A DNA stretch of 64,000 nucleotides, from assembly GCA_951406725.2 (NCBI GenBank), contig OX597816.1, forward strand, positions 77,066,001 through 77,130,000. The letters run 5' to 3'. Below the pieces are notes generated by a model. That model saw only the letters and a list, made by a program, of their open reading frames with translations, did not search any database and was not told the origin of the DNA. Both the position numbers and the translations under genes were made by a program. Origin of the DNA: Octopus vulgaris (Eukaryota). Positions 31,335-48,496 of the stretch are shown here, piece after piece (the stretch's first letter is position 1; every line of letters begins with the position of its first letter).

Positions 31335-31582
31335 ACATGCTGTAGGTTGGCTGCCGAGTTTCGGTGGGAATAGCAGGGCTCGTGGGGTCGGCAATCCTGG
31401 TGTTCCCGCTTCATGTGTTACCTTTATGTTGTGTTGTTGTTGTATATCATTCGATTTATCCGATTTTTTGTAATTTAAAAAAAAAGTTCATTTTTTCTGT
31501 AAATACCATCTGTGTCTCATGACCCCAAATCATGATGTATTGTCCCATTCTTCGTTGGCCCCTTGTGGGTAATAAAGAAATC
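28770..31582 (+). mobile_element. Young 5'-truncated L1/Tx1-like non-LTR retrotransposon
   Basis: GC-richer than its flanks, with an uninterrupted ORF2 frame. The 3' UTR ends gccccttgtgggtaataaagaaatc. An 18-bp TSD atataagtatgtatgtat is present at 28752-28769 and 31583-31600. Confidence 0.95.
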
Positions 31583-33018
31583 ATATAAGTATGTATGTAT
31601 GTATATACTGGCTATAAGTAAGCATATATATAATTGCTTACATATAATTTCATTGCTTTATTAATGCACACAAAAGAAAGGAACCAATCGGTATCAGGTA
31701 TACTTTTACTTTCTAGAACATTGAGTTAAATCGTATTGTTGTGTAGCAATTTTGTAATTTCTTAATGTATAATTTTAAAGCATTCAATGCTCTTTTTATT
31801 CTGTGGTATGCACAGGGTGTAAAGCAACTCATAAGATACCAAACTAAATGTTATATGTACAGTAGAAGGGGGTGATAAAAATGTGATGCTGCTGAAGCAT
31901 TAGGGCTTGCACAGTCAAAGTTGAAAGCCACAATGAATCAACTTGGCAAAATAAACGTTATCATGTGCAAAATTCCTGTGAGCCTAACTCTTCTAAACTA
32001 AAAGACATACAATTATGATAAATATAGTGAAAACGTTTAGTGCTAAGATGTCGAAGCATCAACCACCAATTTGTCATTATCATGTACAAAGTTTAAATTC
32101 ATTTAGTTGAAACAAATATTTATTTACTGAGTGATTAGGTAAACAAATTCCATATATCTCTGGATTTTCCGTTTAATGTCCATATAATAAAAAACATTTG
32201 AAGATGTCTTTCATCATTCTTAAAGTACCGGAATGGTGGAATTTTGAACAAATAATGGTTTAAAGTTCTGTCACCAAACGCATTTAATCCTAACAACAGT
32301 GTGATACAAATATTTGCTATTTTTTCTTCCTTTGAAAAAATAAAACATTTCCAAAATAGCCCACATTCCCATATATTTAAAGTAAGAGTTGGTGGATGAT
32401 AACGTCTTTCTCATTATTAGTGATGGAAATTCGAGAGCTGTCTGAATGTCAACGCGTGGTGATTCCTCTTTTATGCTATTTCTATTGATTTGAGATGATT
32501 TTCTTCGTCTTTTCAAACCATCATCAAAAAGCAACAAATGTTTGAGCGAAATTGATTAAATAAAAAGTACACACACGCTCATACACCGGCGGTTCTTGTG
32601 TGAGAGAAAATCTCTTCATAGATAGGGTGTATTAAAAACACTATGTATATATATATATGTAAATATAAAGTGACAATTATTCGGTAGCCATGATAATTGT
32701 CACATATATTTACAGATAAATTCTTCTATTTACAAAATATTGAGGTCTTTTGTTGTCTTATCATTTCTATCAATATATATATATGTGTGTGTGTGTGTAT
32801 GCATGTATGTATATCGGAGCAAGCCCATCCCAGAAGCGGTCCATACGAACGCCAGGCCTCTTAAAACGTGTGGCCATGAACTCAAGTTAAAAATTATTAA
32901 TATTTACATTTAAATACCCGATTTATTTTACATTTCCTGTCGTGTGTCTTCCAGTTACTCATTCTTTATTTTGGTTTCTCTATATTCTACAGACGCTGAA
33001 AAATTAAACCTATCAATA

Positions 33019-33489
33019 ATGAATAACACTGCACTTGGGAGTTTAAGTCCCAAAAAGGACGTTGTTCCCTCGAATCCTTTCCAAAAGAAAGAAATAAATA
33101 AAATCTCTCTGTCATCTGACCTTGTGAACAGTAATACAGGAAAGTATGCTACCTTACCGACTCGTTACATTCAGCGACCTCAATCCTGCTTTGTGACATC
33201 TAAAGATACCTCTTTTAAATCTCTGGATGTCATACTGGAATGCAGCCCACAGAAAGTTAAGATGAAGCAGACGATCAATACAGACGACGTGTCATCCGAT
33301 ATGGCGCAGCTAAAGGCAGCGGCTGCCAGACTTAAGCTTTCAACTAAAAGACCGAGTTATGTAGCTTGGCAAGCTAAGGCTCAGGAAAGGTCGACAATTC
33401 TAAAACAGGCGATTAATACTGCTGACTGTCTTACAAAGGAGAGGAAAGCTTGGATTAGCAACACCTTGCGGTGGATCGCACAAGAACTG
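33019..33489 (+). CDS. FAM167A: FAM167-family protein, first coding exon (157 codons)
   Basis: ATG at 33019 lies in ORF 32944-33507. DMAQLKAAAARLKLSTKRPSYVAWQ and LRWIAQEL resemble the FAM167 conserved blocks (human ..LRLETRRPSYLEWQ.. and ..WLRKEL, recalled from memory). The exon ends at CTG|GTAAGT (donor 33490, phase 0). A pyrimidine-rich acceptor ttctctatattctacAG at 32991-32992 suggests the exon starts at 32993. A/B paralog assignment is not resolvable; the symbol means FAM167A-like. Confidence 0.88.
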
Positions 33490-33534
33490 GTAAGTATAAA
33501 ACAATAATTAATCTTATATTTCAAATCCGTATTT

Positions 33535-33932
33535 GTTTCTATTCAAGGCACAAGGCTCGAAATTTTTGTGGGAGGGAGCCAGTCGATTAGATCGACCACT
33601 GTACGCAACTGGTACTTATTTTATAGACCCCGAAAAAATGAAAAGCAAAGTCGACCTCGGCAGTATTTGAACTCAGAACATAAAAACAGACGAAATACCT
33701 ATTTCTTTACTACCCACAAGGGGCTAAACACAGAGAGGACAAACAAGGACAGACAAACGGATTAAGTCGATTATATCGACCTCAGGGCGTAACTGATACT
33801 TAATTTATCGACCCCGAAAGGATGAAAGGCAAAGTCGATCTCGGCGGAATTTGAACTCAGAACGTAACGGCAGACGAACTACCGCTGAGCATTTCATCCG
33901 GCGTGCTAACGTTTCTGCCAGCTCGCTGCCTT
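33535..33932 (-). mobile_element. SINE family 2, dimeric form (body + tail B + body + tail A)
   Basis: Head aaggcagcgagctggcagaaacgttagcac; B-box-like gagttcaaattcc twice; internal 63-bp tail at 33701-33763; TSD caaatcYgtattt at 33522-33534 and 33933-33945. Confidence 0.9.
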
Positions 33933-34364
33933 CAAATCTGTATTTAGTTATGACAATTAATACTTCTTTTGTAAAGTCGTCTTGATATTTGAACAGAAGT
34001 TAAGGCAGTGAGCGGACAGAATTTCAAACTTTGTGTCTATAGTAGAAAGGATATTCGAGCAAAAGTTAATTTTGATGTACCAGACAAAGCCTGGATATAA
34101 TTAAAGAGTTTAGCACTCATTATTGCCAGAAATAAGCTATATGCAACTCCAAAGATTCAGTTCCTAGCAATGCAACAGCGCTAATGTTTTAAAAAAATTT
34201 AATATTACTGTTGTTTTAAGGTGGCGAGCTGGTAGAAACGTTAAGCACGCTAGGCGAAGTGCATACTGAGGTCGATCTTATCGATTGGCACCCTCCCCCA
34301 AAATTACGGGCCTTGTGCCTAGAGCAGTAAAGACTATTTAAGAAACATTTAATATTGTTGTTTT

Positions 34365-34770
34365 AAGGCGGCGAGCTGACAGAAACGTTTGCACGCCGGG
34401 CGAAATGCGTAGCCGTAATTTCGTCTGCCGTTACGTTGTGAGTTCAAATTCCGCCGAGGTCGACTTTGCTTTTCATCCTTTCGAGGTCGATAAATTAAGT
34501 ATCAGTTACGCACTGGGGTCGATATAATCGACTTAATCCGTTTGTCTGTCCTTGTTTGTCTCCTCTGTGTGTAGCCCCTTGTGGGCAGTAAAGAAATAGG
34601 TATTTCGTCTGTCTTTACGTTCTGAGTTCAAATTCCGCTGAGGTCGACTTTGCCTTTCATCCTTTCGGGGCCGATAAATTAAGTACCAGTTGCGTACAGG
34701 GGCCGATCTAATCGATAGCACCCCTCCCCAAAAATTTCAGCCCTTGTGCCTAGAATAGAAAAGAATATTA
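34365..34770 (+). mobile_element. SINE family 2, dimeric form
   Basis: Same structure as 33535-33932 in the opposite orientation; tail B at 34535-34598; an internally deleted copy lies at 34218-34340. Confidence 0.9.
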
Positions 34771-46583: not shown

Positions 46584-46926
46584 TGATGTGGAAGAATTTC
46601 TCGTATGTGCTGTACTAGTGAAACTTTTTTATATCATAATCAATAATATATTTCCAATAGTATGAGACATAAGCATTTTCAACTCAACCGTTATTCATAT
46701 ACATACTCTCATCTTTCTTTTTCTGTTTCTCTTCCTCTTCTTTGTTAATTCTGGTTCTTCATATTTTTATTTCTTTATAAGCGTGAGGGACTAAGATCAC
46801 AAAACCTATGCAAGGAAAATTGACTTTGCGTGTTTCTGCATATATATGTGCCTCTCCGTGCATGTGCTTAAGCTCGTAGTAAGAAAAACATACGGTTATC
46901 TGTCACGACTCATTTTTATCTGATGA

Positions 46927-46936
46927 AATAAATAAA
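46927..46936 (+). promoter_or_regulatory. Candidate polyadenylation signal of the FAM167-like gene
   Basis: Overlapping AATAAATAAA about 345 nt after the stop codon, followed by T-rich sequence; could be chance in AT-rich DNA. Confidence 0.4.
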
Positions 46937-47765
46937 TTTTTTGATATTTCTACTTTTAGTTCGGCATATTTAGAGAAATTTATTACTTATTTCACTGCAA
47001 TGTTTGAAGGAATTTCAATACCTGTTAAGAGCTATTCTCTTTTTATAACATGGATAAACTTCAATTATTGTCTGTTTGGATATCACAATCTCTTAAAATT
47101 CTGGAAAATTCTGGAGGGTTGTCGTTTTGTGAAGAAAGAAATGAGTGAAGTGGTTAACCGGGTAAATGAGAAAGATATATATATAATAGGTCATGAGAAA
47201 AAAAGGTTTTAAAACCAGACGAGCAAGCAACAACATGCTTGCTCGATCTTCTGATAACAGTCACCAAATTATATATATATATATACATATATATATATAT
47301 ATATAACAAACGGAAAATAAGAGTTTGTCTCAGGATACGAATTTCACACCACTGCGATCATCAGGCGAAACTCGCATTGGCATGAAACTCGAGTTTCAAA
47401 TAAATCTGGCTTCAAATTTAATGAAAATATATATATATCGTCCACAACATTATTGACCACTCTCTTGTTATTCGTTAGATATTAAGCAATGTATGTGTAT
47501 AGACACACACACACACACACACACACACACACACACACACACACACACACACACGTACGCACAGACACATGCAAACACACACACTTGCACGCATATATAC
47601 GTCTATATGAGTTAGAGGTTAAACAACCATTTAAGGGATAATAAATAGCCAATATACCACTGGATATATACCTATGCATTTATATCCAAATGCCTACAGT
47701 TGTAAGGCAATAGCACAATTAAATAATAGATACGAGTGGATGTAAACACAAGTTTACCCAGAATT

Positions 47766-48071
47766 TATAAATCAAAGAAGAAAATTGAAAAGATAATTAG
47801 TTGACAAACCTCAGCATACAAACATCAATTAGATATATCTATTAATTACATCATATGGATAAATAAATAAATAAATAAATAAGAATAAATGAGTGAATAA
47901 AAATTTACTCTTACAGCTGGACACCAAAAGTAGAAACACGTGTAAGAGTAAAATTTTTTCACTTATTTATTTCTTTATCCATATGACTGCAATTAATAAA
48001 TAGATCTAATTGGTGTTTTTAAGCTGATCTATGTCAATTAATTATCTTCTCCATTTTCTTCTTTGCCTATA
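47766..48071. repeat. Long imperfect inverted repeat (arms about 140-150 bp)
   Basis: ..caattagat..catatggataaa..aaatttactcttaca versus tgtaagagtaaaattt..tttatccatatg..atctaattg; the centre contains GAAACacgtGTA. Confidence 0.85.
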
Positions 48072-48275
48072 CACTATATATATATATATATATATATATA
48101 TATATATATATATATATATATATATATATATATATATATATATATATATATATATACATATATATATATATCAATGATTAAAGTAGTTCTGTGATAAAAT
48201 AATTGATTGCTCACCGTCGAGATCGACAAGGATCCATTTCGTTAGTTATATTTATATAAGAACATGCGCACAAGA

Positions 48276-48496
48276 AAGGCGGCGAGTTGGCAGAAACGCT
48301 AGCACGCCGGGCGGAATGCTTCGCGGTATTTCGTCTGCCGTTAAGTTCTGAATTAAAATTCCGCCAAGGTCGACTTTGCCTTTCATCCTTTCGAGGTCGA
48401 TAAATTAAGTACCCGTTACGCACTGGGGTCAATCCAATCGACTTAATCCCCTTGTCTGTCCTTGTTTGCCCTTGTGGGCAATAAAGAAATAATAAT
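48276..48496 (+). mobile_element. SINE family 2, monomer ending in tail B
   Basis: Ends gcccttgtgggcaataaagaaataataat; TSD atgcgcacaa at 48264-48273 and 48497-48506. Confidence 0.9.

Follow-up and report, generated by a model that had tools for sequence, protein, structure and literature searches.

The window considered here is a 64,000-nucleotide stretch of the Octopus vulgaris genome (assembly GCA_951406725.2, contig OX597816.1, positions 77,066,001 to 77,130,000 of the forward strand), analysed as a whole and numbered from its first letter. It contains long interspersed elements (LINEs) of the L1/Tx1 type together with copies of a short interspersed element (SINE) that ends in one of two tails, here called tail A and tail B. 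The subject of this report is the relation between tail B and the LINE ends, and the use of the same SINE as a LINE insertion site. J1 denotes a junction at which a second SINE arm starts at SINE position ~49, and J2 a junction at position ~15; A2 denotes the younger type of tail-A SINE. The elements concerned are the following.

6494..7071, minus strand: 3' remnant from T3, a third LINE family that is more distant and has a related tail; it lies within a TATC repeat.
28770..31582, plus strand: 5'-truncated L1/Tx1-type LINE of the young subfamily T1a, within a TA-rich repeat.
31535..31581, plus strand: terminal motif of 47 nt, common by alignment to LINE families and SINE tail B, without poly(A).
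33535..33932, minus strand: SINE dimer consisting of head, body, tail B (33700-33760), J1, A2-type second body, and tail A, with a 15-bp duplication round the whole.
34218..34340, plus strand: internally deleted SINE whose head runs directly into tail A, placed in tandem ahead of the 34365 dimer.
34365..34770, plus strand: SINE dimer built like the one at 33535 (tail B at 34538-34597, J1 at 34598), with a 13-bp target duplication.
36477..36708, minus strand: tail-B monomer in a TA repeat.
45209..45397, minus strand: another old tail-A monomer, facing the 45425 copy head to head.
45425..45640, plus strand: old tail-A monomer, ~72-74% identical to tail-B copies.
48276..48491, plus strand: tail-B monomer with a short deletion within the tail, a LINE-like form of the tail end, and a target duplication.
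49578..49770, plus strand: a further old tail-A monomer, flanked by a target duplication of 19 bp.

The coordinates that the original prediction, made from the sequence of the window, had given for the two dimers, the two tail-B monomers, and the 45425 tail-A monomer hold, and the target duplications it had reported are present at the 33535 dimer (15 bp, one mismatch) and at the 48276 monomer (~18 bp, with mismatches).

The window LINE retains a frame of 858 codons (28758-31334) from its second open reading frame (ORF2), with RVT_1 and zf-RVT domains; it terminates at 31581-31582 and is bounded by an 18-bp target duplication (28752-28769 and 31583-31600). Its 3' end had been placed at 31558-31581, which its relatives confirm: all 30 loci of the T1 group that were fetched terminate at the shared motif, and none carries a poly(A) run. 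Apparently full frames of 1132 and 1134 amino acids, each with Exo_endo_phos, RVT_1, and zf-RVT, were found in T1 (L123) and in a second family, T2 (L101), and ORF1 of these LINEs carries zf-CCHC. T1 and T2 have the anatomy of the L1 group, namely an APE-type endonuclease, a reverse transcriptase, a C-terminal zinc motif, and an upstream ORF1. Among solved structures, in which just two matching clades are represented, human L1 ORF2p matches the window LINE protein at E ~1e-52 and R2 proteins match at 6e-26 or weaker. The closest named homologue among the 120 listed of 338 comes from Argonauta hians, and no named Tx1 element is found among those 120; the label "Tx1" is applied here on the basis of the anatomy together with the general character of the clade.

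Tail B is homologous to these poly(A)-less LINE ends. A match of 23 in 24 between 31558-31581 and 33701-33724 (minus strand) had been claimed and is exact, and the LINE match extends beyond those ~24 nt to 47-48 nt. Compared with tail B of the 36478 copy, the window LINE end is identical at 38 of 47 positions (score 43; best of 300 shuffles, 20), the older T1c subfamily at 41-42 of 47 by local alignment (42/47 for L019), elements that retain only ORF1 at 42 of 47-48 (42/47 for L313), T2 at 38 of 48, and T3 at 36 of 50. Each of the five alignments exceeds the best of its own 300 shuffles (scores of 30-65 versus best shuffles of 20-31). Thus, the proposal that tail B is LINE-derived is borne out. 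Of the 63-bp module described in the original prediction, 47-48 nt are shared with LINE ends; the entire 60-63 nt are matched by no family found. The first ~14 nt of the module have no counterpart in any element found; they resemble a short internal repeat and are missing from some SINE copies (L036, L045).

Because the motif is short and T-rich, and because the SINE exceeds the LINEs in number by three orders of magnitude, one might suppose that the likeness arose by chance or that the LINEs took their tail from the SINE. Either is scarcely credible. The alignment scores lie far above those of shuffled sequences, and the motif ends four element groups, including T3, the ORF2 end of which is 38-44% identical to that of T1; capture of the tail by LINEs from the SINE is refuted, in that the motif spans deeply diverged LINEs while tail B lies just ~5% from its majority.

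It should be added that a DNA search of the genome with tail B returned nothing, its words being too frequent, and that a pattern designed to pick out LINEs carrying tail B in exact form hit the SINE instead. In eleven tail-B SINE copies (L261-L264, L266-L271, L274), the tail hairpin has the T2 form, perhaps through gene conversion or a second capture. L172 holds a 55-bp tandem array of tail B plus flank, three to five units long, and a remnant resembling the tail end lies at ~41832-41858 (plus strand) of the window, with no SINE body or LINE directly upstream.

The remaining tail-bearing relatives are of two kinds. T3 is represented by the window fragment (6494-7071, minus strand) and by L031:6760-7363, L186, and L150, and is located in TATC repeats in three of three clear cases and a fourth, looser one. 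The ORF1-only elements (T4), assigned by ORF1 homology, are ~1.7-2.2 kb long and keep the LINE tail (L301-L316, e.g., L315; L136, L138); they surfaced through a T1 pattern that was swamped by SINE variants, and first-look candidates number 457, many of them near-equal copies. One subgroup (L305, L307) has an altered tail with a two-sided change in the hairpin. LINEs or ORF1-only elements occupy the J2 site, at SINE position ~15, in L022, L028, L295, and L296. The target preference of the T1 group is weak, with two of 30 loci at J2, and T1c was rejected as a J2-specific family, as J2 was found in those 2/30 loci, in 0/15 further LINE ends, and in 2/16 ORF1-only loci. A second preferred target is suggested by parts of one other repeat found 3' of several T1 and ORF1-only copies (L003, L006, L023, L026, L292, L293, L308, L313-L315).

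The SINE family is interspersed and of high copy number, ~230-400 nt long, without an open reading frame, and flanked by target duplications (median 16 bp in 33 cases); a body-tail pattern has 34,928 exact matches genome-wide. Motifs resembling the A and B boxes are visible in the head, judged by the general consensus, whereas ARAGORN detects no tRNA in the SINE and Rfam returns no tRNA match up to E=10. Octopus SINEs named OR1 and OR2 were reportedly described by Ohshima and Okada in 1994; they are said to be abundant and tRNA-derived and to have been cited as CORE SINEs, and OK is a third such name. The present SINE may be one of OK, OR1, and OR2, to which it is likened by description rather than by sequence.

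Architectures were sampled in evenly placed stretches totaling 1.0 Mb plus the window (1.06 Mb). This sample contains 100 tail-B units with a SINE body, which extrapolates to ~2.6 x 10^5 units genome-wide; 58 of the 100 are free ends, 33 continue through J1 and eight through J2, and in one a new head comes next. There are 19,477 occurrences of the exact J1 junction, and tandem SINE chains with a 184-bp period reach up to ten units. The original prediction distinguished three architectures (tail-A monomers, dimers, and tail-B monomers), all of which exist; the number is nevertheless too small, since J2 and the tandem chains also occur. A LINE partner for tail A was not found in 1.4 Mb plus the window, where 100 of 111 tail-A motifs have a SINE body upstream and the other 11 resemble SINE remnants. 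Tandem repeats of the head only, with a 64-65-bp period and ending at a target duplication, were also observed (G000:C10:17996024-17996501; L234/L235, L247).

The LINE family T2 is found inserted at a single base of this SINE. In L022, a second LINE is followed by a SINE body beginning at the very base at which the second arm of the dimers starts; upstream of this LINE are a SINE head and a duplication of 16 bp. A search with the T2 3' end alone gave 30 loci, in 29 of which the SINE body comes next, in 28 at the same base. Genome-wide, the T2-end pattern has 101 matches, and 84 of the 100 listed are at the SINE site; the 16 off-site matches consist of 11 SINE copies and five T2 copies, one of these in a decayed SINE head. 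The LINE identity of the 84 on-site matches is confirmed where they are shared with the 30-locus set, and five of five others that were fetched had T2-type ends. Full-length T2 measures ~5.35 kb, and its ORF2 is 70% identical to that of T1. At the 5' end, 15 of 20 long loci have a SINE head, 13 with a duplication of 13-17 bp and two without. T2 shows a target-site preference with 10-20-bp duplications, as is the case for the Tx1 clade. Two long elements stacked in one SINE were seen in L278 and L022/L071.

Might T2 have no target choice at all, the SINE head, the LINE, and the rest of the SINE having simply been copied together as one composite unit? The four of 20 long loci without an upstream head would agree with this, as would the one base change shared by several 5' duplications relative to the 3' copies. 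The ages of the parts largely refute it: among nine young T2 copies, identity is 98.5% in ORF2 and 99.8% in the last 115 nt, as against 91.7% among their host SINEs, and so the T2 copies entered different, older SINE copies independently. Moreover, the hosts end in tail A or in tail B, and 5'-truncated T2 copies of differing length each have their own upstream head. We regard such a composite as very improbable.

The SINE itself enters at this base too. The target sequence is followed immediately by a SINE head in 78 matches genome-wide (66 distinct loci), compared with eight for a single control stretch of the SINE. Among 30 nested SINEs that were fetched, tail B lies downstream in 26, and a duplication of 15-20 bp between the site and the new head is present in 21 (two locus pairs overlap). 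The 3' junction of these nested SINEs is the dimer junction J1. The J1 site lies within an imperfect inverted repeat of the SINE head (34400-34425; SINE positions ~35-60), which may affect nicking or stalling of reverse transcriptase.

Intact nests do not represent the bulk of the dimers. A target duplication surrounds the whole unit in many of them, no host head is present upstream of 19 of the 21 full-headed dimers and chains in the sample, and dimer heads are 7.5% diverged versus 13.9% for free A2 monomers (n=10 each), i.e., as young as tail-B heads. The 10-dimer set is the result of stricter filters and, like the paired-arm and tail-variant sets used below, leaves out the nesting-pattern loci L231-L260 and the off-target set L261-L280. 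As host heads are missing and heads are young, most dimers are either template-switch products or unit copies, the latter made from transcripts that read through at many source loci. In a template switch, reverse transcriptase would start on a tail-A RNA, stall in the structured head, and jump to the 3' end of a tail-B RNA, any genomic site serving as target. Whole-element duplications, young heads, and the lack of a host head at most dimers all agree with such jumping, as does the position of the J1 base inside a hairpin of the SINE head; in addition, right arms are as diverse as free A2 monomers (pairwise 14.8% and 17.1%, compared with 9.4% for left arms; n=7 and 10). We consider it unlikely that template switching is the main source of the dimers, with nesting real but of minor weight, given that both junctions are bases at which LINE inserts with target duplications occur in genomic SINEs and that intact nests yielding J1 are observed directly. 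Nesting and template switching are not mutually exclusive routes.

The original prediction had derived the dimer from one very short LINE insertion, with a target duplication of ~120 bp, into a tail-A SINE, and all tail-B monomers from subsequent internal priming. Parts of this scenario do occur. J1 is exactly the T2 insertion base; L280 contains a 47-nt T2 piece at that base in a tail-A SINE; in L278, ~35 bp of SINE are repeated at the 5' side of a T2 copy; and monomers with the J1-type tail variant bear run-on marks. No observed duplication approached 120 bp, however: the lengths are 13-20 bp in 34 measured cases, J2 would require a second duplication of ~155 bp, and the LINE-like tail variant stands at J1 in just one of 26 units. 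The two arms differ at five diagnostic positions, whereas right arms differ from free A2 monomers at one or two, and the right arms of both junctions match free A2; the old A type also occurs among right arms, and the distance between arms within a dimer is 16.8% (n=10).

Divergence estimates lead in the same direction. It should be noted that the sets used for majority distance, tail age, paired arms, and tail variants include flanks of LINE loci and are thus not random samples. The median distance from the group majority is 17.5% for old tail-A monomers (n=29), 10.1% for younger A2 monomers (n=10), 9.1% and 9.2% for A2-type right arms at J1 (n=12) and J2 (n=6), and 5.3% for tail-B units (n=74); the age range of tail B is 0.053-0.062. 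Within the same dimers, right arms are more diverged than left arms (8.5% versus 5.4%; 21 pairs, p=0.005). The proposed order of ages is upheld in that tail-A monomers, of either type, are older than tail-B forms, but precedence of dimer over tail-B monomer does not emerge, the left arms of both being of the same age (p=0.58, 0.86). A single event is quite improbable in view of the 13-20-bp duplications, the second junction, the chains, and older right arms that match free tail-A monomers; repeated joining at LINE target sites fits the dimers better than one insertion. Nor is the window LINE, which had been put forward as a candidate partner, the source of the tail: it is 98.7-99.5% identical to eight of 12 compared copies (~1% diverged), and next to tail-B SINEs that lie 5.3% from their majority it is a young cousin rather than the tail donor.

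Priming at an internal tail B, another element of the original prediction, finds support for one subset of monomers and not beyond it. Tail variants are linked to 3' flanks (175 units): J1-typical variants form 53 of 65 J1 junctions, and free ends that open with the junction letters are found in 35 of 65 cases of these variants versus three of 29 of the others (p=7e-5). Of 13 such free ends with an unambiguous duplication, ten have a target that carried the letters beforehand, and in three the 3' copy has them while the target copy does not. The simplest reading is that RNA running on past tail B pairs with the target; the link would also be accounted for if the variants were served by different enzymes. 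The suggested switch of mobilizing enzyme is inferred from one side only, because no partner of tail A was found.

In our opinion, the evidence is best explained as follows, with a probability of roughly 0.7: the SINE carries, where its older tail had been, the ~47-nt 3' end common to several L1/Tx1-type LINE families and is likely copied by their enzymes, and joining at the T2 insertion base likely built the dimers and chains. Several observations weigh against this explanation. No LINE family matches tail B exactly or across the whole module, and the T2 tail (38/48) is a poorer match than that of T1c, for which reason the tail donor and the site-specific family are taken to be different lineages. 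The tail hairpin is weak, single folds being no better than shuffles (z-scores of -1.5 to +0.6), and the consensus fold of 18 tails has ten pairs with a covariation term of -0.09 and one pair with a two-sided change. With 58 of 100 tail-B units being free ends, the majority of tail-B SINEs have not landed in another SINE and are often found in TA repeats, and the scarcity of host heads and the youth of dimer heads described above count on the same side. The nesting enrichment was counted against one control site; besides the four long T2 loci without an upstream SINE head, one more has a partial head; and the T2-end pattern barred A at the last place, so that some off-target ends were lost. 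Finally, the site may be chosen by the endonuclease or by RNA-target pairing.

A mechanism can be outlined in which observed and conjectured steps alternate. It begins with the homology between the SINE tail and LINE ends lacking poly(A), by which these LINEs very probably recognize the tail and mobilize tail-B SINEs. T2 enters SINE position ~49 with duplications of ~16 bp, in independent entries into older SINEs; whole tail-B SINEs nest at ~49 with 15-20-bp duplications, giving J1, and related LINEs and ORF1-only elements enter at ~15, giving J2. It is likely that the promoter of the inner SINE then reads through into the remainder of the host, so that priming at tail A would yield dimers and a tail-B host would yield chains. 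Reasonably likely, too, is that priming at the internal tail B, with run-on bases pairing with the target, produces secondary monomers and more copies at the SINE site. For the first capture we somewhat favor a template switch from LINE RNA to SINE RNA near position ~172, the donor being an older relative of the T1c or ORF1-only kind. Taken together, these steps may form a closed loop, for and against which we see about equal odds: a Tx1-type LINE came to target the promoter region of a SINE, and the SINE captured the poly(A)-less tail of that lineage; the SINE would then supply both passengers and landing sites, and run-on dimer RNA would steer copies into still more SINEs.

As for the surroundings, two likely exons of a FAM167-family gene lie on the plus strand at 32914-33490 and 46329-46583, the second matching PF11652 (E=4e-31). 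The SINEs at 33535-45640 sit between them, which would make part of the SINE copies intronic.

Comparable systems share some but not all of these features. In crocodilians, Tx1-Mar LINEs prefer a site inside a Mariner DNA transposon, and SINEU elements are inferred to be their passengers (Kojima 2015, PMC4494074). The likeness includes a site preference in another repeat common to LINE and SINE, two positions used by different families, and tandem SINEs; the target there, however, is Mariner, whereas here it is the passenger SINE itself. SINEU elements also end in poly(A), with no LINE sharing the 3' end of SINEU-1 found in that account, unlike the 47-nt non-poly(A) LINE tail of the octopus SINE (PMC4494074). 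The same source lists target-specific Tx1 elements, i.e., Tx1L in Tx1D, Keno in U2 genes, and Kibi and Koshi in microsatellites, which resemble the octopus LINEs in having two ORFs, an APE-type endonuclease, and fixed sites in repeats (compare T3 in TATC repeats), and differ from T2 in that no SINE appears among the targets given for these four (PMC4494074).

SINEs with L1-clade tails have been described in three cases from plants and algae: ZmSINE2 and ZmSINE3 of maize and sorghum with LINE1-1_ZM, and SINEX-3_CR of Chlamydomonas with L1-1_CR (Ohshima 2013, PMC3747384). Like the octopus SINE, they carry the tail of an L1-group LINE, with ~45-80 nt shared; for them, both a stem-loop and stringent recognition have been proposed. 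That the SINE serves as a target is not described for any of them in the available text of PMC3747384. The combination of one head and body with successively replaced LINE-derived tails is also seen in SINE superfamilies (Nishihara 2016, PMC4824008; Kojima 2018, PMC5786205), the tails of which, in the parts of these papers at hand, come from CR1, L2, and RTE LINEs, unlike tail B. In a recent octopus repeat annotation, 13 L1-Tx1 families are listed as recently active, and most of the SINEs are left unclassified (PMC13282606); such a SINE/LINE pair is not mentioned in its main text, and its repeat-library supplement may list the families. A SINE that is both a tail-sharing passenger and a target was not found in the freely readable papers searched, and the families may already be catalogued in Repbase or Dfam; within those papers, no precedent was found for a self-targeting SINE/LINE pair with stringent tail recognition in the animal L1 group.

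The significance of the system lies, first, in the rarity of SINEs with L1-group tails, of which the literature consulted gives three cases, none of them animal; here, an animal SINE shares such a tail and is a target besides. Targets on record for Tx1 are small-RNA genes, microsatellites, and DNA or LTR (long terminal repeat) transposons. The tail-B system may also explain part of a SINE burst at a distance of 0.065 reported in an octopus genome (PMC13282606), a value near the 0.053-0.062 of tail B. Moreover, it makes visible a way in which SINE dimers and chains may form. Finally, T1 and T2 constitute a natural pair of enzymes, 70% identical and with intact-looking frames, one site-specific and one not, which is suited to testing target choice and the recognition of specific-tail RNA by animal L1-group proteins.

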